Source of the DNA: an uncultured bacterium
Lineage (GTDB): Bacteria; Babelota; Babeliae; Babelales; JABCYS01
Assembly (NCBI GenBank): GCA_963705705.1
Contig: CAVPKK010000009.1
Location: forward strand, 1,740 to 65,739
DNA length: 64,000 nucleotides
Direction: 5' to 3'
In this document: positions 30,937 through 61,979 of the stretch, in pieces
Position numbering within the stretch: position 1 is the first letter of the stretch
How the letters are laid out: each line of letters begins with the position of its first letter
Position numbers and translations under genes: made by a program
Notes under the pieces: generated by a model
The model's database searches: none
Seen by the model: only the letters and a program-made list of their open reading frames with translations
What the model was told of the DNA's origin: nothing

Positions 30937-31836
30937 TTACGCCGCTGGGCGTATAGAAATATTATCAATCACAGGATCAATTACTAACCCTGCCGCCTGC
31001 TGGGTCCCATTTACAACTGGAGTATATCCAAGGACTAAGAGGAAAGAGAGATTATAATTATTATCAGCTTCGAGGGGAACAAATCCAAGTGCTGCGATAC
31101 CATTATTTCCGAATGCAATATTGCCCCGGAGTTGGCTATCGGTATTGGCAACCGAGAAGCCCCAGTTACCATTTTCTTCCGCACTTGAATTCTTAATAGT
31201 TACGACACTAGTACCCTCGACGTTGAACCCTACTCCACCATTGCTATTTGCCACGCAATTACTCACGAAAGAAGAGTAGCTGCTCATGAAATCAAATCCG
31301 ACGTTCGCGTTAAAGCTACATTCACAATTGGTTATCCATCCTTTATCGCCGCTGTTAAATATGATCCCATTCCCCGATGTAAGGACCTGACATCCATCAA
31401 TCCGTACAGCTGTGTTATTAGATTGCACATTGATCCCGATCCCCGGGGGGTTAAGGAAGTTGACTAGATTTAGGCCACTTAACAAGATGTTATTGATTGC
31501 TATAGGTTCTGTTACAATGCCGGTTAACGCCCCAGTAAGGCCGCCACCATCAAGCACCCCATTCTTTATAACAGTATTGCTACTGGTCACAACAACTAAG
31601 AAAGTTAACGCGGATCCCGCAGTAACGGTCTTTCCATTCAAATCAAATATCACATTAGTGCCAGTAATGTTAAGAGCTCCGGTTACTGTCGCATCATCAG
31701 TCAAAATATACTTGCCCGGCTGAGAAAAGGTTGCGCCCGAGGCAATTTCTTGCGGGCTCACGTAAAAAAGAGGTGTGGCCGTGGCGCTGCCGATACCTAG
31801 CAGGCAGCCCAGTGATAGTAGTTTTTTTAAATTCAT
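30937..31836 (-). CDS. secreted right-handed parallel beta-helix (PbH1-repeat) protein, paralog 1
   Basis: Signal peptide 'MNLKKLLSLGCLLGIGSATA'. 'NITGTNVIFDLNGKTVTA', then ~22-aa beta-helix coils ('CVANSNGGVGFNVEGTSVVTIKNSSAEENGNWGFSV'). It ends 'IDNISIRPAA'. Confidence 0.7.
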   Translation of the reverse strand: MNLKKLLSLGCLLGIGSATATPLFYVSPQEIASGATFSQPGKYILTDDATVTGALNITGTNVIFDLNGKTVTAGSALTFLVVVTSSNTVIKNGVLDGGGLTGALTGIVTEPIAINNILLSGLNLVNFLNPPGIGINVQSNNTAVRIDGCQVLTSGNGIIFNSGDKGWITNCECSFNANVGFDFMSSYSSFVSNCVANSNGGVGFNVEGTSVVTIKNSSAEENGNWGFSVANTDSQLRGNIAFGNNGIAALGFVPLEADNNYNLSFLLVLGYTPVVNGTQQAAGLVIDPVIDNISIRPAA

Positions 31837-31868: not shown

Positions 31869-32759
31869 TTATGTTATAGAAATATTATTGAAGCCGAGAT
31901 TAAGTGTCTCATTTTCCGGAATCACTGATGTATTAGATACAGCGATAAAGCCAATTGATCCAGAATAATTTTTATCTGCACCAGTACCACCATTCCCATA
32001 AGCAATATTGCCACGAAACTGAGAAGTAGTATTAGCGGCGGATAACTGGAAGCCCCAAGAGGAATTGTCTTCCGCACTGCAGTTTTTAACAGATACGATG
32101 CTGTTGAATAAGATATTAAACCCTATTGCGATATTTCCATTTGCCACGCAATTGCTCACAAAACAGCGCCCAGTACTGCCTCCTGCCCTTCCAAAATCAA
32201 ACCCGTCGGCCATATTGAAGCTACATTCGGTATTGGTTACCCAGCAACTGTCGGTATTGCCAACGACTAAACCCGAAAATGAATTAATGACCTCGCATGC
32301 ATCAATCCGCACGCCTGTGCTACCACTACCACTTACAAAGATCCCAATGCTTTTGTTGTTAGTCGAGACGTTAACAACAGTCACTCCACTTACCGAAGCA
32401 TTTATAATACCGCCAGCTGTTTCGACCCCAAACATTGCATATGATGTAGGATTACCGCCATCAAGCAGGCCATTCTTGACAGCAGTGTTATTACCATTCA
32501 AAAGAACTAACGCGGTGGCAGGTGTGAAAGTTGAATCTGCAGTAAGTGTCTTTCCATTAAGATCAAAAATTACATCCGCAGAAAGAGAAATACTGCTCGT
32601 TACTATTGCATCATCAGTCAAAACATAGGTGCCTGGGTTCGAGAATGTATAGCCGCCCGAAATCTGACTTGGATTTACATAGAATACCTTGGGGGAAGTA
32701 GCCAGGGCGATGGTGCTCGCACTCAAGGCAAAAAATTGAACTATTCTTTTAATTTGCAT
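31869..32759 (-). CDS. secreted parallel beta-helix protein, paralog 2
   Basis: Start moved to ATG 32759 ('MQIKRIVQFFALSASTIALA', AGGAG upstream). Same coil pattern. It ends 'GFNNISIT'. Confidence 0.7.
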   Translation of the reverse strand: MQIKRIVQFFALSASTIALATSPKVFYVNPSQISGGYTFSNPGTYVLTDDAIVTSSISLSADVIFDLNGKTLTADSTFTPATALVLLNGNNTAVKNGLLDGGNPTSYAMFGVETAGGIINASVSGVTVVNVSTNNKSIGIFVSGSGSTGVRIDACEVINSFSGLVVGNTDSCWVTNTECSFNMADGFDFGRAGGSTGRCFVSNCVANGNIAIGFNILFNSIVSVKNCSAEDNSSWGFQLSAANTTSQFRGNIAYGNGGTGADKNYSGSIGFIAVSNTSVIPENETLNLGFNNISIT

Positions 32760-32842
32760 TATCACTCCTAGGATATTTAATTTCTCAGTTAGACCTAACT
32801 TAGTTTGTGTTCGTCCACGCTTTGGCCCGAATCGTATAATCA

Positions 32843-33691
32843 TCAGGAGATTATACTATAATTAACCAACCCTTGGTCAAAAGTCGATGTTCCTACCGGA
32901 AATGATGTGTTGGTTATTGAATAAAAAGGCGGAACATTCATGCCTGCATAATTGCCCGCATCAGTAGCGTTAAAGGCAATATTTCCCAAGAATAAGGCAC
33001 TAGAGTAAGATGCATCGCTTTGAAAGTTAACCGAACTATTCATATAAGCCTTACAATTCTGAACCACTACAGATGACGAAGCATTAACAAAAAAGCCAGT
33101 AATGCCAAAATTGGCTACGCAATTATTTACCCATGCTTTTGTGCTTGAGGCAAAAGTGAACCCATTGGCGCAAGAGTCTACAGAACATGCTTCGATTCGT
33201 GCTTCTGTATCACTGTTAAGATAGAATGCATTCTCACAACTATCTGCAGTACAATTTCTGATTGTTACTTCTGTAGCTCCTGTAACTCCCGAAACGTTTA
33301 CGCCATAGAAGCAGTTAATGAAATCAATCCCATTAATTGAGGCAACTGGGCCGTGAGTTATTAATACCCCAATCGTTGTACCACCATTTGGAGCCATACC
33401 GCTGATAGTTCCATTTTGAACTGTTATATTCTTCCCAGTTAAGCTGAAAACCGTGACGCCCGTATTATCAGTAATGGTCTTTCCATTCATATCAAATATC
33501 ACATTAGTGCCAGTAATGTTAAGGGCTCCAGTTATTGTCGCATCATCAGTCAAAACATAGGTACCCGGGTTTGACATTGTAAAACCATTCACAATCTGTT
33601 TTTGGCATAAATAATATACCGGGTTGACCTCGGCCAGAACGATTGTGGTCGCGCTCAAGGCAATCAATTGAACTATTTTTTTAATTTTCAT
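32843..33691 (-). CDS. secreted parallel beta-helix protein, paralog 3
   Basis: Signal peptide 'MKIKKIVQLIALSATTIVLA', 'NITGTNVIFDMNGKTITD', beta-helix coils. It ends 'LVNYSIIS'. Confidence 0.7.
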   Translation of the reverse strand: MKIKKIVQLIALSATTIVLAEVNPVYYLCQKQIVNGFTMSNPGTYVLTDDATITGALNITGTNVIFDMNGKTITDNTGVTVFSLTGKNITVQNGTISGMAPNGGTTIGVLITHGPVASINGIDFINCFYGVNVSGVTGATEVTIRNCTADSCENAFYLNSDTEARIEACSVDSCANGFTFASSTKAWVNNCVANFGITGFFVNASSSVVVQNCKAYMNSSVNFQSDASYSSALFLGNIAFNATDAGNYAGMNVPPFYSITNTSFPVGTSTFDQGLVNYSIIS

Positions 33692-33738: not shown

Positions 33739-34779
33739 TTAATTAATAGAAATATTATCAACTACATGGTCAAGGCTTGTAGCCAATTGTAGACCATTAG
33801 TTACTGGGACGAATCCGCCTACTGTATCCCAGTCATAATTGTTGTCAGATCCAGCACTGCCGCCGACTCCACCATTTAAGGAAGCAACATTGCCACGTAG
33901 TTGAGCATTAGTGCCTGACAGAGCCTTGAACCCCCAACTGGTATTAGATTCCGCTTTTGAATGACTAAATACCGACTTACCCGTCACAATCATAGAATTA
34001 AAGCCTACGCCACCATTACCGTTTGCAACAGAGTTATATACCAAAACTGTAGAAGTATCTGAAACATCCAAACCATCGGCTGAATTGAAGTTTAATTCAC
34101 AGTTAGTAACCGTAGCGGATGTACCGGTACCGAAAGAAATTCCTGTCGTTCCAAAAATGGCTTCACAGTCAGTAACCGTACCGTATGTACCATTATCGAA
34201 AAGAATTCCGTTTGAGCAAAATTTTGCAGTACATCCTTTCAACGATGCATTGAAGAAGGCGTTATGGAACCCAGCGAACCCACAACTTACTGCGGTACAA
34301 TCTTGGATTTCTAATCCTATGCTGTCATTCCAAAATCCTTCTGAACAATTATATGCAGAGCATCTTTCGAATCGCGATGACCCCCCAGAGAATCCAGTTT
34401 GCATCCCCCTGAAACCGTTGAAAAAAACTATATCGCTGACTACAGTCTGTCCATCAACAGATAGTCCAGTTGTGAACCCTTGGCCAATGATGGTTCCATT
34501 TTTAACTACAGAATTATTAGCCGATACTTCGATAACTGGTCTAATTCCTGCAATATCTGTAATTGTTTTCCCGTTCAAATCAAACACCACATTAGGGGCA
34601 CTGATAAGGATTTGATGAGTTACAGATGCATCCTCGGTTACGATATACAGCCCTTGTACTGCCGCAGTATAACCTGCAGGGTCTTGCAATTGCGCTTTGC
34701 TCACATAGTAGACTGGGCTACCTAGAGCAATTGTGCTCGCACTTAGGGCGAACATTTGCACTATTTTTTTAATTTCCAT
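33739..34779 (-). CDS. secreted parallel beta-helix protein, paralog 4
   Basis: ATG 34779 ('MEIKKIVQMFALSASTIALG', AAGGAG upstream), 'VVFDLNGKTITD', beta-helix coils. It ends 'VVDNISIN'. Confidence 0.7.
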   Translation of the reverse strand: MEIKKIVQMFALSASTIALGSPVYYVSKAQLQDPAGYTAAVQGLYIVTEDASVTHQILISAPNVVFDLNGKTITDIAGIRPVIEVSANNSVVKNGTIIGQGFTTGLSVDGQTVVSDIVFFNGFRGMQTGFSGGSSRFERCSAYNCSEGFWNDSIGLEIQDCTAVSCGFAGFHNAFFNASLKGCTAKFCSNGILFDNGTYGTVTDCEAIFGTTGISFGTGTSATVTNCELNFNSADGLDVSDTSTVLVYNSVANGNGGVGFNSMIVTGKSVFSHSKAESNTSWGFKALSGTNAQLRGNVASLNGGVGGSAGSDNNYDWDTVGGFVPVTNGLQLATSLDHVVDNISIN

Positions 34780-34794
34780 TATCACTCCTTATAG

Positions 34795-35697
34795 TTAAAC
34801 AATCTCAATATTATCAATTGGGCTTATACGAATACCAGGTGGTAATTGAGCACCATTGTCAATTACAATCGAACCTACAGGTCCAGGACCACTATAATTC
34901 CCACCGGCATTATTATAGGCAAAGTTACCAGTCAGAACTGCGCCGGTATTGTTATAAAAACCTGAACCGGTATTGCCAACTGCTCTGCAGTTTTGAACAA
35001 TAATGTTACTGGTACCATTCAAGTAAAACCCTTCCACAACATTTTTTATAGCAGCGCATTTGCGTAGCAAAACCGATCTAGCGCCGGAATCTACATAGAA
35101 GCCATACCCGCTGCCACCATTACCACTACATTCTCCGATAAAATAATCGATTGCGGTAGGACGGATATAGAAACCAATACCTGAGTCATCAGCTTGGATA
35201 TTTCGGGCGACCACATGTGACGCACCGTTATCAAGACCCGTAGAAAAATTAGTGATACGGCCATTAGAAACTGTCACATAACTAAATCCACCAGCCACAT
35301 CTATACCTACGCCATTACTATTATTATTCGTTTGATTGACAGAGAAACCAGCCAGATCAAGCTCAACGCTTGAAGTAAATATCCTAATTGCCGGAGTTGT
35401 AAGGGTATAATTGCCAGAAACGTCGCCGCACAATATATAGCTACCCGGTACAGTTATTGTAATGGTTGTATTAGCAGGAAATATAGAAGGCGGAGTTCCG
35501 TCAGCATAAATAATCTCATACCCTGCACCACCTGGCAGCGGCTTAATGATATTCGTGCATGCAAAGCTATCATTGTCTTCATCCGATTCGAAAGACTCTG
35601 CATCAAAAAATGATCGCGTAGCAAACATTGGTGGGGAGGCCAGGGTGATCCCCCAGCCTCCCATGATCAAGATTGCTATTAAGCGTTTGATAACCAT
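34795..35697 (-). CDS. secreted parallel beta-helix protein, paralog 5
   Basis: Signal peptide 'MVIKRLIAILIMGGWGITLA'. The domain is collinear with the C-terminal domain of 35717..40213 ('YEIIYADGT...ITVPGSYILCGD', '...SVELDLAGFSV'). It ends 'PIDNIEIV'. Confidence 0.7.
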   Translation of the reverse strand: MVIKRLIAILIMGGWGITLASPPMFATRSFFDAESFESDEDNDSFACTNIIKPLPGGAGYEIIYADGTPPSIFPANTTITITVPGSYILCGDVSGNYTLTTPAIRIFTSSVELDLAGFSVNQTNNNSNGVGIDVAGGFSYVTVSNGRITNFSTGLDNGASHVVARNIQADDSGIGFYIRPTAIDYFIGECSGNGGSGYGFYVDSGARSVLLRKCAAIKNVVEGFYLNGTSNIIVQNCRAVGNTGSGFYNNTGAVLTGNFAYNNAGGNYSGPGPVGSIVIDNGAQLPPGIRISPIDNIEIV

Positions 35698-35716: not shown

Positions 35717-38700
35717 TTATGCTACTTGGATTTCAATATTATCAATTGAACGATCAATGCACATTCCTGGCGGCACTTGAGCACCATTGCCAATTACAAT
35801 TGAACCGAATGGTCCAGTTCCGCCATAGTTGGCAGTTGTATTATTGAATGCAAAGTTACCAAGCAATACACCCGTTGAGCTATCATTTTCGAATCCAAGC
35901 GTGCCATTGTTCGTAGCTTTGCTAGATTGAATGATTACATTGACTGCAGAAGATCCAATCGAGAAACCAGCACTTCCATTCTGAGTTGCTGAACATTCCT
36001 TCATATAAACATCTGTAGTTGATGGACCGTTAATAAAGAACCCGATACTACCATTGTTTGATGCATGGCTTCGCTCAATGAACACAAACGAAGATCCAGG
36101 TTGGATAAACATGCCCACAGTAAATGCATCCTCAACTTGGATGTCCTTTATAACTACATGGCTAGCGCTATCTATCACAATGTTCGTACCAAACTTAACC
36201 ACGCGGCCGTTATACATCGTTATATACGAAACAGGGGCTAAACTGGTATTTATACCAACACTGCTACCTGGAGCTCCATTTTGAATAACGGAGAAGCCAC
36301 CTAAATTAAGTTCGACACTTGAAGCAACTATATCAATACCATCGGTACCAGCAGCATCGATATCGCCGCATAGTTGATAACTGCCAGGCACGGTTATTAA
36401 CACAGGCGCTGGCGCACAAGGTCCGACTGTTCCGTCAGCATAGATAATCTGGTATCCACCAGGGCAAGCTACGATGAAGTTTGTGCAATCCACATCCTCA
36501 TCGGCAAGGCTTTCGAGCACCGTGAATGTGCCATTGAAGCCAGCTACCAGCTCAGCTTTGATATCGATTAATTCGCTGAAGGTTCCATTGAAGTCTGCAA
36601 CCAACTCAGTCTTGATATCAATCAACTCACTGAATGTGCCGTTAAAGTCATCAACGATAAGTGACTCGAGATCCGCTAGGATTGAGAACGTACCATTGAA
36701 GTCGGCCACAAGCTCATCTTTGATATCAATTAATTCAGTGAAGGTACCGTTGAAGAAAGCAACCAATTCAGTCTTGATATCGATCAACTCACTAAATGTG
36801 CCATTGAAGTCATCAACGATAAGTGACTCGAGGTCCGCTAGGATTGAGAACGTACCATTGAAATCGGCTACAAGTTCAGTCTTGATATCTATCAATTCAC
36901 TGAAGGTTCCGTTGAAGTCTGCAATGAGTGTTACCAAGATATCTTCAAGCACTGTGAAGGTGCCGTTGAATTCGGATTCAATGTCGTCATTGAGGCTTTC
37001 CAAAATGTTATTCAACATTGTGAACGTGCCATTGAAATCGGCTACGAGCTCCGTCTTGATATCGATCAACTCGCTGAACGTACCATTGAACTCTTCAATG
37101 ATAAGCACTTCGAGATCCTCTAGGAATGAGAATGTGCCGTTGAAGTCTGCAACTAGCTCTGTTTTGATATCAATTAATTCACTGAACGTACCATTGAAGT
37201 CAGCAATGATTAACGCTTCAATATCTGCTAGAACCGTGAATGTGCCATTGAAATCAGAAACAATATCATCCTCAATAGCATTCAACATTGTGAACGTGCC
37301 GTTGAAGTAAGCGACCAACTCAGTCTTGATATCGATCAACTCGCTGAAGGTTCCATTGAACTCTTCAATGATAAGCGCTTCGAGATCCGCTAAGATTGTG
37401 AACGTGCCATTGAAGTCTGAAACAATGTCATCCTCAATAGCATTCAACATAGTGAAGGTGCCATTGAAGTCGGCGACCAACTCAGTCTTGATATCGATCA
37501 ATTCACTGAAGGTACCGTTGAACTCCTCAATGATGAGAGCCTCGAGATCCTCTAGGAATGAGAACGTGCCATTGAAATCAGCTACGAGCTCAGTCTTAAT
37601 ATCAATCAATTCAGTGAAGGTACCGTTGAAGAAAGCGACTAATTCAGTCTTGATATCGATCAATTCGCTGAAGGTTCCATTGAACTCTTCAATGATAAGC
37701 GCTTCGAGATCCGCTAAGACTGTGAACGTGCCATTGAAGTCTGAAACAATGTCATCCTCAATAGCATTCAACATGGTAAACGTACCGTTGAAGTCAGCAA
37801 CTAACTCAGTCTTGATATCAATTAATTCAGTGAAGGTACCGTTGAAGAAAGCGACCAATTCCGTCTTGATATCGATCAACTCGCTGAAAGTTCCATTGAA
37901 CTCTTCAATGATAAGCGCTTCGAGATCCGCTAAGACTGTGAATGTGCCATTGAAGTCAGAAATAATATCATCCTCAATAGCATTCAACATAGTGAACGTA
38001 CCGTTGAAGTCGGCGACCAACTCAGTCTTGATATCGATCAATTCACTGAAGGTACCGTTGAACTCTTCAATGATAAGCACCTCTAGATCCTCTAAGACCG
38101 AGAATGTGCCATTGAAGTCTGCAACTAACTCAGTCTTGATATCAATTAATTCGCTGAACGTGCCATTGAACTCAGCAATGATTAACGCTTCGATATCTGC
38201 TAGGACTGTGAACGTACCATTGAAGTCTGAAATAATATCATCTTCGATAGCATTCAACATGGTGAATGTGCCGTTGAAGCCAGCAACTAACTCCGTCTTG
38301 ATATCAATCAACTCACTGAAGGTACCATTGAACTCTTCAATGATTAACGCTTCGATGTCTGCGAGCACTGAGAAGGTGCCATTAAATTCGCAAACTAAGA
38401 AGCAGCCAATCGCCTCGACTTCTGACAGGATTTCATCAACATCACAGTCAATCTCTTGCACAATGCTTAGGATAGAATCTATATCACTTTCAATCTCTTC
38501 TAGCACCGAGAACGTGCCGTTGAAATCAGCTACGAGTTCAGTCTTAATATCGATCAACTCACTGAAAGTGCCGTTGAATTCGCAAAGCAGGAAGCAGCCA
38601 AGCGCCTCGACTTCTGACAGAATTGCATCAACATCACAATCAATATCTTTCACAATGCTTAGAACCGAGTCTATATCACTTTCAATCTCGGCAAGTGTTG

Positions 38701-40213
38701 TGAATGTGCCATTGTTATTAGCTACTAGCTCAGTCTTAATATCGATCAACTCGCTGAAAGTGCCGTTGAATTCGCAAAGCAGGAAGCAGCCAAGCGCCTC
38801 GACTTCTGACAGAATTGCATCAACATCACAATCGATGTCTTTCACAATGCTTAAGATAGAATCTATATCACTTTCAATATCTTCTAGCACCGAGAACGTG
38901 CCATTGAAATCAGCTACGAGTTCTATCTTAATATCAATCAACTCGCTGAACGTACCGTTAAAGTCAGCATCAATTGTTACCAAGATATCTTCAAGCACGG
39001 TAAATGTGCCATTAAAGCCTTCTTCGATATCACTTTCAATTGATGCAAGACGAGAATTAACCTCGCACTCAAAGTTCAGAAGCTCATCAAATATTGCATC
39101 AACATCACACTCAATTCTTTCAACGGTGCTCTCAATTGATTCAACTTCACTGAGGATCTCAGATAGCACTGTGAATGTGCCATTGGAATTAGCCACAAGT
39201 TCAACTTTGATATCGATCAATTCACTGAACGTGCCGTTGAAATCAGTCACAAGCTCAATTTTAATATCAATCAACTCGGTGAATGTACCGTTAAAGCCAG
39301 CATTAATATCGCTTTCTAGACTTTCGATTTCAGACAATATTTGATCAACGCCACATTCAATATCGAAAACAACTTCTTCGATAACGTCCAGTTCGCAAAG
39401 AATATCATCAACTTTAGAATTTATGCTGTTAATTTCAGATGTAAGATCCTCGAGCACTGAAAATGTACCATTGAAGTCGACCACAAGCTCGGTCTTAATA
39501 TCGACAAGCTCAGTGAATACACCGGAAAGATCGCAGGCCGCTTGATCACATGCGCATGCCGCGATGGCTTCTAGCATTGAGAATGTGCCGTTGAACTCAG
39601 TAATGATTAGACTTTCTAGGCTCTCAACCTCAGACAATATTTGATCAACATCGCAATCAATATCGAAAACGACTTCTTGGATGACGTCCAATTCGCAAAG
39701 AATTTCATCGACTTTTGAATTTATGCTTTCAACTACATCACAACAATCGCCTTCAGCAGCACAGCAAGCGGATATTGTGTTTAGAATGTCATTTAGAACG
39801 GTGAACGTACCAGCTGCTATAGTGCCCAGTTCCACTTCAAGGGTATTAAAGCCATTATTTAATGTAGTAAATACACCGGAAAGATCGCAAGTTCCACGAT
39901 TCTCGCAACATGATTCGAGACTCTCGATTTCACAGAGAATATTATCAAGCTTGGCATTTACGCGAGCCAATGATGAGTTAATTGGTGTAAGGTCACAGTT
40001 GCCCGGGGGAGGCACTGGTTGATTGCCTTGGTCGGGGCCAAGCGGCGTCGCAGTATTTGCATTAGGCCGCGGCGCTCGATCATCAGCAAGCTTCCTCGTC
40101 GTTTCCTCATCCGATAATTTGCGGACTTCATTGCCCTGATCTAATGGCTGGTCAGCAACTGCTATAGTAGCAGGCAAACCAAAGGCCATTGCCAATGTTA
40201 ATAATATCCTCAT
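35717..40213 (-). CDS. giant secreted acidic protein: Cys-rich N-region, ~47 x 18-aa 'FNGTF' repeats, C-terminal parallel beta-helix domain
   Basis: One uninterrupted minus-strand ORF. Start set to ATG 40213 ('MRILLTLAMAFGLPATIAVA', GAGGAG upstream); the longest ORF begins at 40270. The last ~270 aa are homologous to 34795..35697 and end 'SIDNIEIQVA'. Confidence 0.8.
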   Translation of the reverse strand: MRILLTLAMAFGLPATIAVADQPLDQGNEVRKLSDEETTRKLADDRAPRPNANTATPLGPDQGNQPVPPPGNCDLTPINSSLARVNAKLDNILCEIESLESCCENRGTCDLSGVFTTLNNGFNTLEVELGTIAAGTFTVLNDILNTISACCAAEGDCCDVVESINSKVDEILCELDVIQEVVFDIDCDVDQILSEVESLESLIITEFNGTFSMLEAIAACACDQAACDLSGVFTELVDIKTELVVDFNGTFSVLEDLTSEINSINSKVDDILCELDVIEEVVFDIECGVDQILSEIESLESDINAGFNGTFTELIDIKIELVTDFNGTFSELIDIKVELVANSNGTFTVLSEILSEVESIESTVERIECDVDAIFDELLNFECEVNSRLASIESDIEEGFNGTFTVLEDILVTIDADFNGTFSELIDIKIELVADFNGTFSVLEDIESDIDSILSIVKDIDCDVDAILSEVEALGCFLLCEFNGTFSELIDIKTELVANNNGTFTTLAEIESDIDSVLSIVKDIDCDVDAILSEVEALGCFLLCEFNGTFSELIDIKTELVADFNGTFSVLEEIESDIDSILSIVQEIDCDVDEILSEVEAIGCFLVCEFNGTFSVLADIEALIIEEFNGTFSELIDIKTELVAGFNGTFTMLNAIEDDIISDFNGTFTVLADIEALIIAEFNGTFSELIDIKTELVADFNGTFSVLEDLEVLIIEEFNGTFSELIDIKTELVADFNGTFTMLNAIEDDIISDFNGTFTVLADLEALIIEEFNGTFSELIDIKTELVAFFNGTFTELIDIKTELVADFNGTFTMLNAIEDDIVSDFNGTFTVLADLEALIIEEFNGTFSELIDIKTELVAFFNGTFTELIDIKTELVADFNGTFSFLEDLEALIIEEFNGTFSELIDIKTELVADFNGTFTMLNAIEDDIVSDFNGTFTILADLEALIIEEFNGTFSELIDIKTELVAYFNGTFTMLNAIEDDIVSDFNGTFTVLADIEALIIADFNGTFSELIDIKTELVADFNGTFSFLEDLEVLIIEEFNGTFSELIDIKTELVADFNGTFTMLNNILESLNDDIESEFNGTFTVLEDILVTLIADFNGTFSELIDIKTELVADFNGTFSILADLESLIVDDFNGTFSELIDIKTELVAFFNGTFTELIDIKDELVADFNGTFSILADLESLIVDDFNGTFSELIDIKTELVADFNGTFSELIDIKAELVAGFNGTFTVLESLADEDVDCTNFIVACPGGYQIIYADGTVGPCAPAPVLITVPGSYQLCGDIDAAGTDGIDIVASSVELNLGGFSVIQNGAPGSSVGINTSLAPVSYITMYNGRVVKFGTNIVIDSASHVVIKDIQVEDAFTVGMFIQPGSSFVFIERSHASNNGSIGFFINGPSTTDVYMKECSATQNGSAGFSIGSSAVNVIIQSSKATNNGTLGFENDSSTGVLLGNFAFNNTTANYGGTGPFGSIVIGNGAQVPPGMCIDRSIDNIEIQVA
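36500..39620 (-). repeat. in-frame tandem coding repeat, unit 54 nt (18 aa), organised in higher-order blocks
   Basis: 'ccattgaa' recurs at 37353, 37407 and 37461 (exact 54-nt spacing). The peptide units are 'FNGTFSELIDIKTELVAD', 'FNGTFTMLNAIEDDI(I/V)SD' and 'FNGTFTVLAD(I/L)EALIIEE'. Confidence 0.9.
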
Positions 40214-40273
40214 TTCCACTGTCGCTCCTCGCTTAAAAGAAACCATTGCCAAGCATTCACCCAATGCCAACTA

Positions 40274-40349
40274 CTAATACTGAGTGGCTTAATGCCACTA
40301 ATACTGGGCGGCTGTCGCCACCTATCAATACTGAGCGGCTAACGCCGCC
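40274..40349 (-). repeat. three tandem ~24-28-nt stem-loop repeats in the spacer between the OMP gene and the giant repeat gene
   Basis: ctaatactgagtggcttaatgcca / ctaatactgggcggctgtcgccac / ctatcaatactgagcggctaacgccgcc. Two units contain a perfect 5-bp hairpin (gtggc-ttaat-gccac, gcggc-taac-gccgc); the middle unit has only an imperfect one (ggcggc-tgtc-gccacc, 5/6 pairs). Confidence 0.7.
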
Positions 40350-40396
40350 CATACCGCGCTTCGCTCGCCGGAGAATAAATTCTCCGACTCACTTCG

Positions 40397-42328
40397 CTAA
40401 TATTGAACCACCATACCTATATGCCATGATGTCTCACGCATCACTTCCTTACCTCCAACCACATGCGTCCAACCCAAGAAGAGGTCGCCTGAGTTCCAAT
40501 GATGGAAAAATTCAAGGCGCATTTTATGAGAAAGACGTTGTGTCTGACGTTCCAACACTCGCGGATCGAGCGTTTGTAGATTGCCAAAAAGATCAGGTGC
40601 CATAGTGCGGACTGATTCATTGCTGTTGCTGCACACGTTGCTCTTTTGGCCACATGATGCATTTTCAATTTCAGGATTTACAAATTCAATTCTATCCTTG
40701 CTCTTGCCATAGAATTCATAACCGACAAGGAAACCAAGGCCAGGATTGTTTGGATGGTAGAAGTTAAGATCGAATTTTACCAAGCCGTAATCCCACTGAA
40801 CTTCAGCGTCTACAGTTGGGTTAATATTCTTAATAGTGGCGCCAACAAATGATGCAGCTACTTTCTCGCGGCGTTTACATACATGGAAGTAATCACCTTC
40901 GAAATTCATACCAAACCAACAAACAGGCATGTAATACCATTGGGTTCCAACGCGGACCTCATAATGGCCATCATTGCCGGTTGCCATGCGATATACTTCA
41001 CCAGGATTTTTATCGCGCTTATCTGTTGGCCAACGAACACCAAATCGGCCTTCGCCATACATATTTTTATCACACAAGAAGTCATAGCCTAGGTAAATCG
41101 TGGTATCAAGATTACCTACACCACGTTCTTTTTCCGTATCAAAAGTAATGCCATTATTCGCTAAAAATTCTGATGGCGTTACGAATGTACCAGCAGTGTT
41201 AATCAACGATTCAATTTCACTCTCAGCAGTTATCCACTCTGATGATGGACCAATATCACCTGCAGCATCTGAGTAGAATGTCGGTACAAACCAAAATTTT
41301 GATTTCGCGGCATTGCTGTCGCTCAAGACAGTGTAATCAACACCCTGTCCGAATACCCAACGGCTACCTGGAACGCCACCAACAGCGGCACCGGCGCCAT
41401 CTAGCACTGGATAAGCAAATGCCCCTGGCGCACCAGGAACACCATTAACACCCACTTGAAATTCTCCCGCTGCAAAACGATCAACTGGCGGTATACCAGG
41501 TGTTTCTTGCAAGAGATGCGCGGGCACTGCAATCATTCCATTTCCACCGGTGTAAAAATCTGAAACACCCAACGGCACATGGCCAGCATCGGTTACATCA
41601 ATTGGCCCTGGTTGGAAAGCTTGATTTAAAATGGCTGTACCCCAAGTGATTCCGGGCAAAAGACCATTACTTTCAGCGAGCGCATCAAGGAAGTCTAGGC
41701 GGTAGGTACATTCATATTGCTTAAGAGTTCCAGAACCGAAACTGTTACCAAGCGGATCTGTAGGGTATGTATCATAGAAATCAGAGGAACAACGACGTAC
41801 CTCTGCAAGCCCTTCTTCACCTAAACCGCAATCACAGTTACGGCGATGCATTTCAACCACGCGGAATGGCAAGTTCACCCGCAAGCCAACATGCATTCTG
41901 TCGTCTAGGAAACGACGGGCTACATTTAAACCAACTACAATACCTTCTTCGTTATATTCAACACGCGGTTTAACGGTAGAAAATGAAAGAAAAATGGTAG
42001 ATGGCGAAACAGTGGAAACTGTATTGTTAGCAAAAACTTCCGAAACGGTAAAATCTGACAAACCAAATAACAATTGTGTTATTGGTACACGATGGTTGTC
42101 GCATGGGCCAAAGGCATCAGCAGCATTTTGCGCATAGCCAGCACCCCATACATCAAAGTCCCAACACGGGATACTTTTTTCATCCTCTTCCCATTCGATA
42201 GGAATGTGGAAATGCCCTAACGGCTCATTTTGCAGATTGAGCGGTGTACGAATGTCACGCGCTGTCAATGCGCCTAACCCAAACGCACTTAAGAGTGCTG
42301 CCTGAATTAATATGTTCCTCTTAACCAT
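40397..42328 (-). CDS. putative outer-membrane beta-barrel protein
   Basis: Signal peptide 'MVKRNILIQAALLSAFGLGALTA'. Gly/aromatic-rich alternating segments and a C-terminal aromatic residue ('HIGMVVQY'). No named family recognised. Confidence 0.4.
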   Translation of the reverse strand: MVKRNILIQAALLSAFGLGALTARDIRTPLNLQNEPLGHFHIPIEWEEDEKSIPCWDFDVWGAGYAQNAADAFGPCDNHRVPITQLLFGLSDFTVSEVFANNTVSTVSPSTIFLSFSTVKPRVEYNEEGIVVGLNVARRFLDDRMHVGLRVNLPFRVVEMHRRNCDCGLGEEGLAEVRRCSSDFYDTYPTDPLGNSFGSGTLKQYECTYRLDFLDALAESNGLLPGITWGTAILNQAFQPGPIDVTDAGHVPLGVSDFYTGGNGMIAVPAHLLQETPGIPPVDRFAAGEFQVGVNGVPGAPGAFAYPVLDGAGAAVGGVPGSRWVFGQGVDYTVLSDSNAAKSKFWFVPTFYSDAAGDIGPSSEWITAESEIESLINTAGTFVTPSEFLANNGITFDTEKERGVGNLDTTIYLGYDFLCDKNMYGEGRFGVRWPTDKRDKNPGEVYRMATGNDGHYEVRVGTQWYYMPVCWFGMNFEGDYFHVCKRREKVAASFVGATIKNINPTVDAEVQWDYGLVKFDLNFYHPNNPGLGFLVGYEFYGKSKDRIEFVNPEIENASCGQKSNVCSNSNESVRTMAPDLFGNLQTLDPRVLERQTQRLSHKMRLEFFHHWNSGDLFLGWTHVVGGKEVMRETSWHIGMVVQY

Positions 42329-42393: not shown

Positions 42394-45300
42394 TTAAATT
42401 GATACGTTTATCGAAGCTATCGAATTATTTGAATTCAAGAGCAATGAAATAGATCCAATATCTAATGAGTGTGTGAAGTCAACCACTGGAATACCACCCG
42501 GTCCAGTAGCACCTGTAACTATTTTACGGAATATAGTTGCGTCATTTTCGTAAACGAGAATATTTGTATCGATCGTGCTCTTAGCGAATGGTACGCGTGG
42601 GAAGCTGTATGATGGGAATGGTTCATCCCGTAATGCTAAGTAGGTAAATAATTGGTCAGCCGATACATTAATTTGACTAGAACCAAACATTTTGATGGTA
42701 GCATTATCAAGCAGCATCGCAGCCGAACTCATAATACCTACACGAGCGAGGCCACCTGGCACCGCAATCGTTCCATTAAAGTCGGTAACCGTTATCGAAG
42801 CATCCGTAATTGTCGGATCAAGCTTCACGAGATTACCGCCACCTCGAATGAGGGCATCAACGCTGTCAAATACGAAGCTGAATTTACCGTCAGCGTTGCC
42901 GCCGATTGCAAACAAGGTTGAACGAAGGTCATTTCCATCTACGATTGAGTTATAGCTAAATGCACCCATTGCAATATTGATAGTGATGCTGTTAACGTTA
43001 AACAATGATGACACAGTCCATTGATTTGCCGGCGCTCCTGCTGGTTTTGAAACAACACCTACGCCAAGACCAAAGAAGCCACGATATTGAGTTACAAAGT
43101 TTGCACTCACACCGTCAAGCTCAAGGCTGAAGGTCACTGAACGATCTTCGCTTGGTACCGTATCACCCACTTGGAATGCACCACCTGGAGTAGAGAAATC
43201 ACCTACGGCGATTCGTGCTCCATCCTGCACATGGAATAATAGATTCGTAGACACATCGCACTCTGCCATGGTTTCAATACCAACAACGGCATTCTCATGA
43301 ACAAACATTTGCGAAGCATCGGTAAAGCGTACTTCACCGGTACCAATAAATCGTGCACGAACAACCTGATCGGCCGATGTAGGGACGCTCATTGGATCTG
43401 ACGTTTGTACTATGATTCCTGAATCTTCACTAAACAGAAGAAGGCCGCCGCCTAGTCGTACGGTTGAACCAACTTCAAGAACCAATTTCAATTGACCAGT
43501 AAACTCAACTACTTGGCTTGGCTTGGTCATAGATGATAGATCTAATACGCCGCCATTACGTACACGGATTTCCTTTTCAATTTCTGAACGGAAAACCAAT
43601 GTATCGGTATTAGCAAGACCAAATTCAGGCCCTGCAGCAATTTGGCATACGTTATTAATGATAAGGCTATCGTTAACTTCGATAATACCGCCACCATTAT
43701 TTGGAATAATAGTTACGCCATTTGCTCCAAGAACAACAGCTGCATCAACAGAATCTACGTTGCGGCTTGCGCTGCCGAGACCAACACGGCCACCGTCTTC
43801 AACCACCACCACGCCTGTTGGCGCTTCAGCAGAATCATAACCGCTCAAGAATACGAGTTCGCGAACATAGCCGCCATCGCCTACCTTAAGGTGAGCCATA
43901 TCACCAATACGTGAGCGCTTGATTTGGAATTGGTACACCTCGCCATGCACTTCAGGCAAGCTGATTAAATTATTATCGCTTACTGGCGGATATTCACACG
44001 GGAATGCATTGCAGAATTCGTACGGCATCCAACCACATAATGGAATGAATGGTCTGCCATTGCGAACGCATGGAACCGCATAGTTTTTCTTGGTTGCAAT
44101 CCAATCAAGTGTGTAATCAGTAATGAGACTGCCCGCTGGCACAATATCAAGTTGCGATGGATCGGTAAGATTAAGTTGCCAGTTGGTAATACCTACGCGC
44201 AAGTTGAAGAATATTTGCGATGCAGGAAGATCCACGCGACCATTATGACTCTTGACCACCATCGTTGAGATATTGGCGCGACGGTATGGTTTAACATCAA
44301 AGAGACCATTAGTATCAACAAAAATAGCACCCTCGCCCGTTACACCACTTTCTTCTGGATAGCTAATATCGCCACCACGAGTGTCAAAGGAGAAATAACA
44401 ACCATCAATAGTAAGGGTTGGCGTTGTGGTTAGAAGGAATGTACCACTACAATCAGATGTTGTACCAACCGTATCCTGTACACCCAAAGAGATGTTGCTT
44501 GCATGGCCAAGATAGATGGTATGCACAGAAGCTTGACGACGCAGTTCATGCGGTGGGATTAAAGGATTGATTTCATCATTAATCGAGCTGTCACTTGCAG
44601 CCGTTCTTAGATGTACATGATGCGTGCCTGGCCTTGGGTCAGGAAGTTCTTGAATCACATCGAAATGCGCATTGCGATCAATGAGTTTGCCATCGCATGC
44701 AAATGAACCAACATCAGTACCTAATACCATTTGACGTCCTACGCCATTATCAACTGCGCGACCGTTGGTATAGAAAATGAACGGCTGGTTATTGCCCGGG
44801 CAACCGAGCCCACCACATGGATTATTTGGTACAAGAATATCAACACCAGTAAATGCCACATCACTGAGCAAGTGGAATGGCGCATTAACAAAGCTTATCT
44901 TTGGTCGACCCTCAAAGGCGGTATCTCGGGAACAGTCTGTTCTTGGGCAGATACCGATTTCGGTTAAGAAGTGATGCTCACCACCGACATATGTTGGTTC
45001 GGAAGTGGTATCATTTTTCTCAAGCACCTCGTGATTTTCATCATCGTGTACTAATGAGACCCCATTTAAATTAAGCCGTCCATTGATTAAGAAATAGGCT
45101 TTATCATAGCGTAGTAAATGACCATGCTTATCTGTGGCAAAGGTACGCGCAGGGAAGTATGGTAAGCCTTCACGAACAACTGCAAAGCCGCCGGTAGGAG
45201 TTACCTGTAATGATAAGACGCGTATACCTTCCAGATGCTTATCAGCTCCTTGAATATCAAGTGCACCTTCGACATCAAGCACCACATTGCCGGCGCTAGG

Positions 45301-46728
45301 CCCTCTATCATGATCGAAGTCGTGGTGGGAGAATGTAGAGAGATGATCAAAATCAAATAGTTCCGAACGGAAATAAAGGCCCGAATTGCCGGTCATAATA
45401 ATTAGTGGCGATGGCGCCCCTGGCGTTGCATCAGCTATAAATGCAGATGCGTTTCGCGGTTTTGTAATTGAATCTTCATCAAAGCCAAGCTCGGTGAGCG
45501 CTTCTGGCAGCTTACAGCATGCTTTTGGACAGTGATTGAATCTGGTGCCAATGTAATCAAAATAGGTGCGATCGGTGATATCAATTACGCCGTTACTACC
45601 CAAAATAAAGCCATATTGCATACCACCCGCAGTGATAAAGGCGTTATCACAGAACGGATTATTCATATAGGTGGTTACAACATCGTTACGATTAACCACT
45701 ACTAATGAAGCAGGGAAATCAGGCAACGAATTGATAACATCAAAAGATGCGGTGCCACCACCGAGAACTTCAGGATCTACGTCACTAATCAAATAATCAT
45801 TAAACGAACCAGTTGTTAGCCAACGCGGAGAAATAAGCACATTCCCTTTAGGCGAGACGTGCAATACCAAGCGACCGGTACCAGTGTTAGCGGCATCAAA
45901 AGTAATGTTTGCCAGCGGGCCAGTTGCCGGTGATTGAACTGGAGAGACATAGCCCATTATTGAATTAGGGCCAACCTTAATTTCTGCATCATCGGCCACG
46001 ACGCCATCGCGTTTAAAAAGCAATTTAGGATTATCAGCACTCATATCCATAAACAGCTTAACGCCACCCGTACCATGAGCTCCCGTGAATGAAACTTTTT
46101 CACCGCCAAAAACATCGAAAATCACCGTGCCTGGGCCGGAGATAGATACTAATAGATCGATAAGCGTAGATCCGTTATTAGTTCCTTGGAAGGTAAGTGA
46201 GTTTTCTAATGAGAAGGTAATTGTTTGATCCGTATTTGCCCAGAGGTATAAACGTGGTTGGGTTAAATTACAACCAGTTATTACCGCATCGCCAGAGTTT
46301 ACGGTTACGAGAACATTGCAAGTATTTGCTATTACATGAATTGGACCAACGATTTGGTTGGTACCTGAGACATCGATATTTTGATCGACCACATCAGTGT
46401 TAACGCCAGTGGCACAGCTATTTAGATTGTGCCAGAGTACAGTGGTGCCGCATGCAGGGTCAGCGACTATCCTGTCTTGAACTACTTCTGATTTCTTAGG
46501 TACTGCGGCTGTTACTGTTTTTATTTGTTGATTAACCGCTGGTTTTTTTGCTTTATCGGTTGCTACCTTTTTAACCGTTGCAGCTGCAGGAGCCTTAGAT
46601 GCAGAGGCATCAGACTTACGAACAGTATCTTTTGCAACGGTAGGGGAACCATACAGCGGAAGCACCAAACTAAAAACTACTGCGCCTAAGACAGCAAAAA
46701 TCTTAGGCCGAGCTACAACAAATTGCAT
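42394..46728 (-). CDS. 1444-aa secreted protein, probable beta-solenoid surface protein
   Basis: Signal/anchor 'IFAVLGAVVFSLVLPLYG' and a Lys/Ala-rich linker, followed by long G/N/T/V-rich strand-like sequence. It ends 'SIASINVSI'. Confidence 0.55.
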   Translation of the reverse strand: MQFVVARPKIFAVLGAVVFSLVLPLYGSPTVAKDTVRKSDASASKAPAAATVKKVATDKAKKPAVNQQIKTVTAAVPKKSEVVQDRIVADPACGTTVLWHNLNSCATGVNTDVVDQNIDVSGTNQIVGPIHVIANTCNVLVTVNSGDAVITGCNLTQPRLYLWANTDQTITFSLENSLTFQGTNNGSTLIDLLVSISGPGTVIFDVFGGEKVSFTGAHGTGGVKLFMDMSADNPKLLFKRDGVVADDAEIKVGPNSIMGYVSPVQSPATGPLANITFDAANTGTGRLVLHVSPKGNVLISPRWLTTGSFNDYLISDVDPEVLGGGTASFDVINSLPDFPASLVVVNRNDVVTTYMNNPFCDNAFITAGGMQYGFILGSNGVIDITDRTYFDYIGTRFNHCPKACCKLPEALTELGFDEDSITKPRNASAFIADATPGAPSPLIIMTGNSGLYFRSELFDFDHLSTFSHHDFDHDRGPSAGNVVLDVEGALDIQGADKHLEGIRVLSLQVTPTGGFAVVREGLPYFPARTFATDKHGHLLRYDKAYFLINGRLNLNGVSLVHDDENHEVLEKNDTTSEPTYVGGEHHFLTEIGICPRTDCSRDTAFEGRPKISFVNAPFHLLSDVAFTGVDILVPNNPCGGLGCPGNNQPFIFYTNGRAVDNGVGRQMVLGTDVGSFACDGKLIDRNAHFDVIQELPDPRPGTHHVHLRTAASDSSINDEINPLIPPHELRRQASVHTIYLGHASNISLGVQDTVGTTSDCSGTFLLTTTPTLTIDGCYFSFDTRGGDISYPEESGVTGEGAIFVDTNGLFDVKPYRRANISTMVVKSHNGRVDLPASQIFFNLRVGITNWQLNLTDPSQLDIVPAGSLITDYTLDWIATKKNYAVPCVRNGRPFIPLCGWMPYEFCNAFPCEYPPVSDNNLISLPEVHGEVYQFQIKRSRIGDMAHLKVGDGGYVRELVFLSGYDSAEAPTGVVVVEDGGRVGLGSASRNVDSVDAAVVLGANGVTIIPNNGGGIIEVNDSLIINNVCQIAAGPEFGLANTDTLVFRSEIEKEIRVRNGGVLDLSSMTKPSQVVEFTGQLKLVLEVGSTVRLGGGLLLFSEDSGIIVQTSDPMSVPTSADQVVRARFIGTGEVRFTDASQMFVHENAVVGIETMAECDVSTNLLFHVQDGARIAVGDFSTPGGAFQVGDTVPSEDRSVTFSLELDGVSANFVTQYRGFFGLGVGVVSKPAGAPANQWTVSSLFNVNSITINIAMGAFSYNSIVDGNDLRSTLFAIGGNADGKFSFVFDSVDALIRGGGNLVKLDPTITDASITVTDFNGTIAVPGGLARVGIMSSAAMLLDNATIKMFGSSQINVSADQLFTYLALRDEPFPSYSFPRVPFAKSTIDTNILVYENDATIFRKIVTGATGPGGIPVVDFTHSLDIGSISLLLNSNNSIASINVSI

Positions 46729-54600: not shown

Positions 54601-54693
54601 GCCCCCGATTGGAAACTCAATAATAGCCATCTGCCCAAACGTCGGCAGGCAAAAATTAAGAAGGAATATTGATAAAATGAGGCGAGACAACAT
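51654..54693 (-). CDS. bamA: outer membrane protein assembly factor BamA, frame broken near 52100-52135 (ORF pieces 52048..54705 and 51654..52115)
   Basis: Signal peptide, POTRA-like repeats and a barrel. The C-terminal piece carries 'PPERFFLGGAQTIRGY' and ends 'LALGNAF'. Confidence 0.9.
53604..53630 (+). repeat. GC-rich interspersed repeat copy, antisense and in frame inside bamA
   Basis: atccttcgattaactcaggatgagcgc. The adjacent 'cgaagtccgacaaagc' also matches 62481-62496 ('cgaagtccgacatagc'). Confidence 0.6.
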
Positions 54694-54759
54694 CGAAAAT
54701 ACCACACTGGTGCTAGTTCATTAGTTAGCATAGTGTAGCATGTTTTACATCGTTTCTGA

Positions 54760-57365: not shown

Positions 57366-58533
57366 GCAATCTCAACTAGTGCAAAAAAAGTTTGGTATTT
57401 TCACAGCGACTCTCATTGGCATGAACGCCATGATTGGAGCTGGTATTTTTACTTCTCCAGCAAAATTAGCAACTGCCGTCGGACCAGCCGCATTGCTGAC
57501 ATATCTTTTTGTAATCGTTGCCGTGTGGTGCATGGCACAGTCATTCGGCCGATTAGGTGAGCTATTTCCAGGTGTTGGATCCTTTTGGCAATTCACGCGC
57601 CCATGGGCTGGCGATTTTGTTGGCAAGCTTGTTACATGGTCATATATTATTGGTTTAGCGGTAGCGATGGGTTTCTTAACTGAACGTGCTGGTATCTATC
57701 TGCAAGAATATTTTCCTACCATTGCAAATACCTATTTATCGTTCATGGTGCTATTGGCAATCATGATCCTGCAATTTATTGGTGGCAAAGCAATCGCAGT
57801 GTCGCAATACATTTCGATTTGCTGCACCATTTTCCCTCTGATCACAATCGTTGGCTTGTGCATTACAAAGGCGTCGTGGCACAATCTCATTCCATTCGCT
57901 CCGTTTGGTTATGCTGCGGCAATCAGAGAAATTCCTGCAGTCATTTTTGGATTTATGGGATTTGAAACAATCACAACACTCTATGCTGTTGTAGAGGATC
58001 CGAAAAAAACATTGCCGCGCGCATTAAATTATGCAGTTCTTGCCGTTGGCACGATCTATCTAATCTTTATCGGCACCATTTTTGCCACAATCCCTGCAGA
58101 ATTATTTGCAAATGCCAGTGTGCCATTGTCACAACCGTTCAAGCAACTATTTCCTGAGTACCATTGGCTCGTCAATTTGATTCATGCTTCGATGACCATT
58201 GCGTTTATAAGTGTGATTAATGCGGTATCGTATGCGATGAGTCAACTTATACTGCCATTGCGCCCGTTTGGTCTTTCACGCATTAAAGATTATGCGCGAC
58301 TAACTTCGATTATTGATGTACTTCTTTTGATCTATTTAGCATTTCGATTACTCAAAACGCCCGATCTATTCTTTGCAGTCGCATCTATGCTACTTATGAT
58401 TCCATTTTTAACTTCATTTATTACTCTGCTAACCTTGCCACGTGAACGAACCGTGGTAACCTACATAACATGTGCAACGACTGTAATTGTTTTTTGTTCC
58501 GCGGTATATAATGTCGCACAGCAGTTGCTCTAA
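57364..58533 (+). CDS. amino acid permease (APC superfamily)
   Basis: 'LIGMNAMIGAGIFTSPAKLA' consensus in TM1 and about 11-12 TM helices. Confidence 0.8.
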   Translation: MQSQLVQKKFGIFTATLIGMNAMIGAGIFTSPAKLATAVGPAALLTYLFVIVAVWCMAQSFGRLGELFPGVGSFWQFTRPWAGDFVGKLVTWSYIIGLAVAMGFLTERAGIYLQEYFPTIANTYLSFMVLLAIMILQFIGGKAIAVSQYISICCTIFPLITIVGLCITKASWHNLIPFAPFGYAAAIREIPAVIFGFMGFETITTLYAVVEDPKKTLPRALNYAVLAVGTIYLIFIGTIFATIPAELFANASVPLSQPFKQLFPEYHWLVNLIHASMTIAFISVINAVSYAMSQLILPLRPFGLSRIKDYARLTSIIDVLLLIYLAFRLLKTPDLFFAVASMLLMIPFLTSFITLLTLPRERTVVTYITCATTVIVFCSAVYNVAQQLL

Positions 58534-58555
58534 AAATTTGAAAAAGGGTGTTCGA

Positions 58556-61923: not shown

Positions 61924-61979
61924 AATTGTTGACGCGAGATTATGCTCTGTGTTCTGCTATATAGAACATAGGAGTTTTC

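Follow-up and report, generated by a model that had tools for sequence, protein, structure and literature searches.

A giant acidic FNGTF-repeat protein in a Babelota genome: a putative stalk-and-head fibre whose repeats resemble N-glycosylation sequons

The present work deals with a 64,000-nucleotide stretch of DNA (hereafter, the window) from an uncultured bacterium of the Babelota (contig CAVPKK010000009.1), and in particular with a minus-strand gene that would encode a giant acidic protein carrying 47 copies of an FNGTF motif. The methionyl-tRNA synthetase encoded in the same window finds its best named matches in Candidatus Dependentiae, at 56-58% identity, the best hit of all (77%) being one without a name. 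The open reading frame (ORF) that encloses the gene, the longest of its region in the ORF list, runs from a TTG at 40270 to 35717. Within it, a GAGGAG sits 11 nt upstream of an ATG at 40213, and translation from this ATG opens with MRILLTLAMAFGLPATIAVA followed by DQ, by inspection a typical Sec signal peptide. Taking together the ATG, the GAGGAG preceding it and the signal peptide, 35717-40213 is the likely coding sequence (CDS) of the giant protein, the parts of which are listed in Table 1. The intergenic stretch upstream of the gene (40271-40396) holds three copies of a CAGTATT(G/A)(A/G)T(A/G)G-like 13-mer, which may be a regulatory site, and a scan of this stretch for the sigma-70 consensus gave nothing convincing.

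The initial annotation of this DNA had described a secreted, giant and acidic protein with a Cys-rich N-region and a C-terminal parallel beta-helix. The signal peptide, the length of 1,498 aa and a calculated pI of about 4.05 (D+E 19%, K+R 3%) bear out the first part of this description, the Cys-rich strings quoted from the N-region are all found in the translation, and the beta-helix is recovered by both PF13229 and AlphaFold. In the low-complexity linker that comes after the signal peptide, the string 'RAPRP' aligns to the conserved N-terminal motif of the protein family described below, and its modelled portion (aa 43-73) has a predicted local distance difference test score (pLDDT) below 50. 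The Cys-rich N-region contains Cys-Cys (CC) pairs, 12 FNGTF units at irregular spacings (40, 60, 57, 46 aa) and three long units of 64 aa, with a 192-nt period detected by Tandem Repeats Finder (TRF) at 38366-38959; 27 of the 33 Cys residues of the protein fall in aa 73-608. The regular array that continues from it is made of three unit types, ordered as C-A-(A)-(B) blocks.

Table 1. Parts of the giant protein and positions of family members in the window and in two other Dependentiae genomes
Feature	Position	Strand	Basis or remark
Giant FNGTF-repeat/beta-helix protein, likely CDS	35717..40213	-	1,498 aa + stop; ORF list, ATG, homologues in Dependentiae/Babeliales
Putative signal peptide, aa 1-20	40154..40213	-	Read from sequence; without lipobox Cys
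Pro/Asn-rich low-complexity linker, aa 21-72	39998..40153	-	Sequence, family N-termini, AlphaFold
Cys-rich N-region, aa 73-609	38387..39997	-	Cys positions, spacings, TRF, PF04513, AlphaFold
Regular array, aa 610-1243	36485..38386	-	35 FNGTF units, each of 18 aa except one of 22 aa
Right-handed parallel beta-helix head (PbH1/CASH-like), aa 1244-1498	35720..36484	-	PF13229, AlphaFold, Foldseek
Five consecutive head-only paralogues	34795-35697, 33739-34785, 32843-33691, 31869-32843, 30937-31836	-	PF13229 in each
Stalk-only paralogue, 282 aa	21936..22784	-	Exact match to P0151; six-frame motif scan
Three adjacent family paralogues, P0019, P0021, P0020	10001-18862 of locus L002 (other Dependentiae genome)		Among housekeeping genes
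Two adjacent family paralogues, P0018, P0016	9599-16942 of locus L001 (other Dependentiae genome)		Among housekeeping genes

The motif NGTF occurs exactly 47 times in the giant protein; 40 of the units measure exactly 18 aa, 38 successive spacings are equal to 18, and TRF returns a period of 54 nt, with higher-order periods of 162, 216 and 192 nt. These figures agree with the earlier hand count of about 47 units with an exact 54-nt period and N-G-T in each of them, and the 'roughly three quarters' of units with Asp or Glu at position -2 turn out to be 37 of 47 motifs (79%). In the 18-aa units, positions F1, N2, G3, T4, F5 and L8 are invariant, and synonymous codons are mixed, across 40 units, at Asn (AAT 22, AAC 18), Gly (GGC 20, GGT 15, GGA 5) and Thr (ACG 14, ACC 13, ACA 10, ACT 3). 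The higher-order blocks, which had been said to recur nearly identically, do so as protein but not as DNA. Thus, 39 of the 40 regular units are distinct in nucleotide sequence, the best block identity is 85-91% (no copy exceeds 85% over 300 nt or 91% over 216 nt), and eight units of identical amino acid sequence differ on average at 9 of 54 nt (about 17%), every change being synonymous. The reading frame stays open through the 4.5 kb of the gene. From the divergence among units and the purely synonymous character of these changes it follows that the array is old, is kept by purifying selection and is no collapsed or expanded product of assembly; its units are easy to assemble. Two plus-strand ORFs, 36474-37310 (278 aa) and 37326-39344 (672 aa), lie antisense inside the array; they are almost certainly not genes, and owe their freedom from stop codons to the periodic repeat sequence.

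Relatives of the giant protein were sought by an exhaustive HMMER search with aa 61-1245 over 1.84 billion cluster representatives, which returned 114 proteins at E<=1e-3, 13 of them at E<=1e-30, and a word-indexed search gave 27 homologues. All the named homologues come from Babeliales/Dependentiae and are annotated as 'right-handed parallel beta-helix repeat-containing protein', and the giant protein is a member of this small family, every named protein of which is from Dependentiae. No relative was found in the JGI metagenome contigs scanned with the giant protein. Family members have in common a signal peptide, an N-terminal APRP...CD(L/F)S motif, CC pairs and units starting with F-x-G-T-F-(T/S)-x-L, and their C-terminal heads vary: some are beta-helices, with or without an added WD40, and others an unrelated domain of about 400 aa that ends in GWEERF. 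The closest relatives beyond the window, P0161 (403 aa) and P0157 (674 aa), are both encoded on one contig of 160,667 bp and show the acidic unit type of the giant protein (DFNGTFSELIDIKTELVQD), with five motifs each in the motif scan, followed by a beta-helix.

The Dependentiae beta-helix proteins P0002 (HEX2978622.1) and P0019-P0021 (JAMCTG010000005.1) resemble the giant protein in the features common to the family, in the C-terminal beta-helix and in their tandem paralogy. However, the stalks of these relatives are rich in Thr and Asn, near-neutral, built of units of 11, 18 and 25 residues and provided with many CC pairs, whereas the regular array of the giant protein is acidic, almost free of Cys and invariant in N-G-T; some relatives, unlike the giant protein, bear WD40 propellers or the GWEERF-ending domain as heads. 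Since no other member of the family exceeds 34 motifs, the 47 motifs of the giant protein represent an extreme expansion of the stalk, and the largest array of the family.

The claim that the repeat belongs to no described family holds in part. No description of the FNGTF unit was found in the searchable literature, nor anything relevant on beta-helix proteins or surface repeats of Dependentiae, but aa 490-602 match PF04513 (Baculo_PEP_C) with 43.3 bits, above the gathering threshold of 38, and relatives reach up to 66 bits. This match covers only the long units of 64 aa of the giant protein, and not the 18-aa array. PF04513 is one of the Pfam families listed as picking up unrelated proteins because coiled coils converge (PMC3695513). 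Homology to the baculovirus PEP protein appears unlikely, the family being an attractor of coiled coils and no viral relatives having appeared by tblastn among phage genomes and IMG/VR contigs.

The head, that is, the C-terminal 255 aa, matches PF13229 (Beta_helix) with 28.8 bits against a cutoff of 25.9, and AlphaFold models it with pLDDT above 90 as a right-handed beta-helix of stacked short strands. Among the structures of the PDB, Foldseek places it next to the tailspikes Dettilon gp208 and CBA120 TSP2, the epimerases AlgG and AlgE4, and pectate lyases, with probabilities of 0.99-1.0 and E-values of about 2e-3 or worse. In the BFVD database it comes closest to phage depolymerases and to the beta-helix proteins encoded by giant viruses of Klosneuvirinae type (E=1.5e-5). 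This class of fold typically binds or cleaves polysaccharides, and the head probably binds or cleaves a glycan, either on a host cell or in the bacterial envelope.

As to the stalk, the comparative evidence favours an alpha-helical lattice. The 995 unique inter-motif spacings collected from the family cluster at 11, 14, 18, 22, 25, 29, 32, 36, 39 and 43 residues, all of them sums of 7 and 11. Their phase coherence (R) reaches 0.69-0.70 at periods of 3.5-3.6 residues and is 0.04 at a period of 2.0, a uniform null averaging 0.038 and never exceeding 0.107. On a binary hydrophobicity scale, the harmonic near 3.6 is dominant in the unit classes of 11, 14, 18, 25, 29, 36 and 43 residues, and the giant protein's own units yield 0.39 near 3.6 vs 0.23 at period 2. 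In permutation tests, the hydrophobic moment at 100 degrees gave p-values from 0.02 to <0.0002, and that at 180 degrees was never significant. The six near-invariant hydrophobic positions (1, 5, 8, 11, 15 and 16) occupy a 140-degree arc on a helical wheel, and would be split 4 vs 2 between the faces of a strand. Repeat lengths and hydrophobic core positions are thus phased as expected for coiled coils (3.5-3.67 residues). In the PDB, the family profile matches alpha-helical coiled coils only, mostly of trimeric fibres: the heptad repeat 1 (HR1) regions of coronavirus spikes 7zr2 (E=1.9e-6) and 7wxz (1.3e-5) and other HR1s, followed by the SadA fragment 2wpr (E=0.064), reovirus sigma-1, HA2, TRIM25, dynactin p50 and myosin. 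The sub-threshold Pfam matches are likewise all to coiled-coil families.

There are, however, observations that do not fit a helical stalk, some of which give weight to a possible, though rather doubtful, alternative, namely that the 18-residue unit forms one coil of a narrow two-sheet solenoid, or a long hairpin strand with turns at N-G, in a beta-structured rod whose acidic surface could possibly bind Ca2+. AlphaFold2, in two independent jobs, modelled the FNGTF units as beta strands that break only, and exactly, at N-G, with pLDDT of 70-87. In the job covering aa 1006-1498, pLDDT was 70-84 over the units and the predicted template modelling score (pTM) was 0.58; in that covering aa 43-717, mean pLDDT was 58.8, with 60-87 in the regular part, and helices were confined to the long Cys-containing spacers, modelled as helix-loop-helix pairs. 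The Foldseek neighbours of this last model in the PDB are all solenoids (tailspikes, curli CsgA, antigen 43), at the non-significant level of E>0.6. Moreover, N-G is a classic tight-turn dipeptide and the Gly (sometimes Pro) at position 3 of the motif is disfavoured within a continuous helix; beta-branched residues abound in the units; on the Kyte-Doolittle scale the power of the 18-residue unit is 0.39-0.44 at period 2.0 vs 0.20-0.26 at 3.6; position 12 (K/E) lands on the hydrophobic face of the helical wheel; and a sequence search of the PDB with the giant protein alone gave 0 matches. Against the fibre as a whole it counts that the analysis came upon neither an anchor domain nor a dedicated secretion partner for the giant protein. 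Covariation of hydrophobicity between unit positions, grouped by separation, carried neither an alpha nor a beta signal.

A beta structure is nevertheless hard to reconcile with the spacings, which show no parity and, as said above, are coherent near 3.5-3.6 and not at 2. A solenoid coil could not be built from units of 11 or 14 residues, both the invariant L8 and V/I16 would face outward in the beta model, and the family profile leads exclusively to alpha-helical coiled coils. The AlphaFold models were obtained for a monomer from 15-23 aligned sequences (pTM 0.46-0.58), and no RTX or other Ca-binding Pfam family matched. An RTX-like Ca-binding roll was rejected in particular, there being no GGxGxD/HemolysinCabind match at E<=0.1 and a single Gly per unit. 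The comparative evidence is given more weight than the prediction because the latter is that of a monomer from a shallow alignment, and the stalk is probably an oligomeric fibre. The structural and profile check that had been recommended for the repeat gave a divided answer, beta strands from AlphaFold and coiled coils only from the family profile. The proposal that FNGT is a structural turn between short amphipathic acidic helices stands closer to the comparative data, although the strands of the AlphaFold models speak against it.

A different reading, put forward in the initial annotation, concerns the chemistry of the motif. According to it, the 47 N-G-T, 37 of them with D/E at -2, would be acceptor sites of PglB-type oligosaccharyltransferases or of HMW1C-type N-glycosyltransferases, and the stalk a heavily N-glycosylated rod. 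The giant protein does share with PglB substrates and with the HMW1/HMW1C system its secretion, its many N-x-T, mostly as D/E-x-N-x-T, and its beta-helical domain; an exported protein with the extended sequon in most of its motifs would meet a periplasmic oligosaccharyltransferase, purifying selection has kept the motif unchanged in all 47 units, and the closest relatives (P0151, P0157, P0161) keep FNGTF. The invariance of Asn in this subfamily, where D, E, Q or A stand elsewhere, is indeed the one observation that a structural explanation leaves unaccounted for. On the other hand, the sequon is not conserved in the family. In a motif census of 130 family proteins, N-x-T is kept in only 441 of 1,309 equivalent motifs (34%): FNGT (212) is accompanied by FDGT (70), FEQT (54), CNGT (51), LSGV (50), FEGT (42), FQQT (41), FNNT (37) and FAGT (35), LNGV being also common, so that D, E, Q, A or S commonly stand in place of Asn, and V often in place of Thr. 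In some relatives D/E at -2 is missing throughout (P0002, 0 of 22 motifs; P0019-P0021), stalks of the same acidity but with 0-1 sequons occur in other members, and Asn is no more invariant than F1, T4, F5 and L8, whose constancy a sequon leaves unexplained.

Neither does the genetic context speak for glycosylation. Pfam and NCBIfam scans of essentially all window ORFs of at least 150 aa detected no STT3/PglB, GT41 or other glycosyltransferase, in agreement with what had been noted at first sight, and no two-partner secretion (TPS) domain or TpsB partner; five otherwise unassigned ORFs of at least 500 aa matched no Pfam-A model at the thresholds used. The giant protein itself has no TPS/haemagglutination-activity domain, and the sole Omp85-family gene of the window lies 12 kb off, beside potABCD, and has BamA-like POTRA domains. 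At locus L002 no glycosyltransferase adjoins the family paralogues. No paper linking Dependentiae to PglB or N-glycosylation was found, and the description of Chromulinavorax reports the lack of lipopolysaccharide genes without mentioning glycosylation (PMC6561590). Taking into account the 34% of N-x-T in the family and the window without glycosyltransferases, the interpretation of the array as bacterial N-glycosylation sequons is not supported, and the HMW1C-type variant fares no better in these 64 kb. It is very unlikely that an oligosaccharyltransferase or N-glycosyltransferase from another part of this Dependentiae genome modifies the 47 sites; if one did, the densely glycosylated rod would bring to light protein N-glycosylation in a phylum not known to have it. 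Most likely, the likeness to a sequon is a by-product of a structural motif. Less credible still is an array created by faulty assembly, or a repeat expansion without function and in decay. Long tandem arrays mis-assemble readily and the giant protein was not found in the public indexes searched, but the divergence of the units in DNA, the frame kept open and the synonymous-only changes all speak against such an origin, as do the homologues with up to 34 motifs held in independent assemblies.

Thus, the explanation that we favour, with moderate confidence, is that of a Sec-exported stalk-and-head fibre or adhesin, with a segmented coiled-coil stalk of FNGTF units and a glycan-binding beta-helix head. 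The protein would be exported by Sec and would oligomerise via its Cys-rich N-region and its stalk, the FNGTF unit being a structural module of the latter and not primarily a modification site. F1, F5, L8, I/L11, L/I15 and V/I16 would form one hydrophobic stripe of about 3.6-residue periodicity, and the 18 residues would amount to a hendecad plus a heptad (11 + 7), that is, five helical turns, from which the stalk would most likely be a segmented and nearly straight alpha-helical coiled coil. The dipeptide (N/S/D)-(G/P) would mark the start of each helical segment, leaving N-G-T on the polar flank. CC pairs form interchain cystine knots in homotrimers such as collagen III. The recurrent CC pairs of the giant protein would be hard to bond within a chain and, by analogy, suggest a disulfide-locked oligomer; together with the single Cys residues, they probably tie the stalk into a homo-oligomer through interchain disulfides, a trimer being a likely candidate. 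We infer in this way an oligomer held by disulfide knots and placed at the cell surface, where the acidic rod would project the glycan-recognising head away from the cell. If the 47-unit stalk were fully helical (846 residues x 0.15 nm), the rod would measure about 130 nm, and about 23 nm as a solenoid. The head might mediate contact with the surface of a protist host or the remodelling of a glycan layer, the protein acting as an adhesin or spike. The stalk would have arisen by repeated duplication of blocks of 3-4 units.

The stretch around the giant gene contains further members of the family. The five head-only paralogues lie directly downstream of it, and consist of 282-348 aa with a signal peptide and a right-handed beta-helix that is 22-40% identical to the giant protein's head. 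The nearest of them, with 40% identity, shares with the giant protein the junction CTN(F/I)I..PGG.Y(Q/E)IIYADGT. In the stalk-only paralogue, a signal peptide and a CC pair are accompanied by five units of the FNGTF and two of the LSGVF type; its C-terminus is Cys-rich ('ACCGPNFPC'), and there is no beta-helix. The nearby presence of head-only and stalk-only paralogues indicates that both modules evolve independently, and would reflect a modular diversification like that of adhesins and tailspikes.

Three other exported proteins of the window are also rich in Cys and lack Pfam and NCBIfam matches, namely those encoded at 40397-42328 (minus strand, 643 aa, 11 Cys), 42394-46728 (minus strand, 1,444 aa, 21 Cys) and 58487-60031 (plus strand, 514 aa, 15 Cys), and two of the three end in an aromatic residue, as outer-membrane barrels do. 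They may be components of a disulfide-cross-linked envelope, at which, speculatively, the two putative outer-membrane proteins encoded next to the giant gene (40397-42328 and 42394-46728) would hint. The BamA-like gene (51654-54705, minus strand) is apparently split into 52048-54705, with the POTRA domains, and a separate, overlapping ORF, 51654-52115, with the C-terminal portion of the Omp85 barrel. Either a frameshift or an error in sequencing could account for the split, or the gene may be a pseudogene. At 61177-62465 (plus strand), a pilin-like protein that bears an N-terminal methylation motif comes after a prepilin peptidase (Peptidase_A24); both represent type IV pilus/type II secretion machinery that could be relevant to export. 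A heparinase II/III-like protein with N- and C-terminal Pfam domains (6151-8067, minus strand) is a further candidate for a glycan-active factor of this bacterium, presumed to be an intracellular parasite. Finally, a 1,214-aa protein with four AAA ATPase stretches (14672-18316, minus strand) adjoins an 826-aa protein without family match (12182-14662).

Dependentiae (TM6) are widespread obligate intracellular parasites of protists and, as far as we are aware, almost nothing is known about how they attach to and enter their hosts. A small family named only in this phylum, with arrays of paralogues and a modular stalk bearing interchangeable heads, is therefore a concrete candidate for their host-contact apparatus. 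In addition, the stalk unit, which contains Gly, is rich in Asn and Thr and follows an alpha-helical lattice of spacings, yet is folded by AlphaFold as beta, offers a test case for the prediction of fibres, and could be useful for the design of straight (18/5) coiled coils. The array also shows that a perfect-looking series of bacterial sequons can stem from a structural repeat, a caution for the sequon-based prediction of glycoproteins.

It remains to place the giant protein among known fibres. With phage tailspikes and tail fibres, such as CBA120 TSP2 and Dettilon gp208, it would have in common a fibrous shaft and a right-handed beta-helix head, tailspikes being the nearest folds of the head by Foldseek probability, not by E-value. 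The shaft is predicted in the giant protein as coiled-coil segments broken at the Gly/Asn motifs, and T4 fibritin is an example of a phage fibre with a segmented coiled-coil shaft. Unlike phage fibres, the giant protein has a Sec signal peptide, a small head (about 255 aa) and no nearby phage genes. A tblastn search with aa 400-700 revealed no sequence similarity to phage genomes, and the IMG/VR contigs scanned with the family member P0012 gave nothing; a viral origin of the stalk, be it from baculoviruses, giant viruses or phages, was therefore rejected.

The trimeric autotransporter adhesins YadA and SadA follow the same logic of head and stalk, with polar, Asn/Thr-rich stalks and non-heptad periodicities, and a fragment of SadA is found, as mentioned above, among the matches of the family profile. 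The stalks of trimeric autotransporters contain VxxNTxx 'N@d' layers, from which the FNGTF motif differs, and their heads are N-terminal, whereas that of the giant protein is C-terminal. Membership of this class was rejected, since Pfam and NCBIfam detect no YadA-type C-terminal anchor and the C-terminus is a soluble beta-helix. The HR1 trimeric coiled coil of coronavirus spike S2 provides the best PDB matches of the family profile and resembles the stalk locally ('SNFGAISSVLNDILSRLD' vs 'NEFNGTFTVLNDIKNTLT'), including a Gly within the core-forming segment, although the giant protein alone does not match it; this likeness is almost certainly due to convergence of polar coiled-coil sequence, and not to homology. 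Taking into account the missing anchor, the lack of phage context and the absence of sequence similarity, the giant protein stands outside the tailspike and autotransporter families, and would work like the fibres or adhesins that combine a coiled-coil shaft with a beta-helix head.

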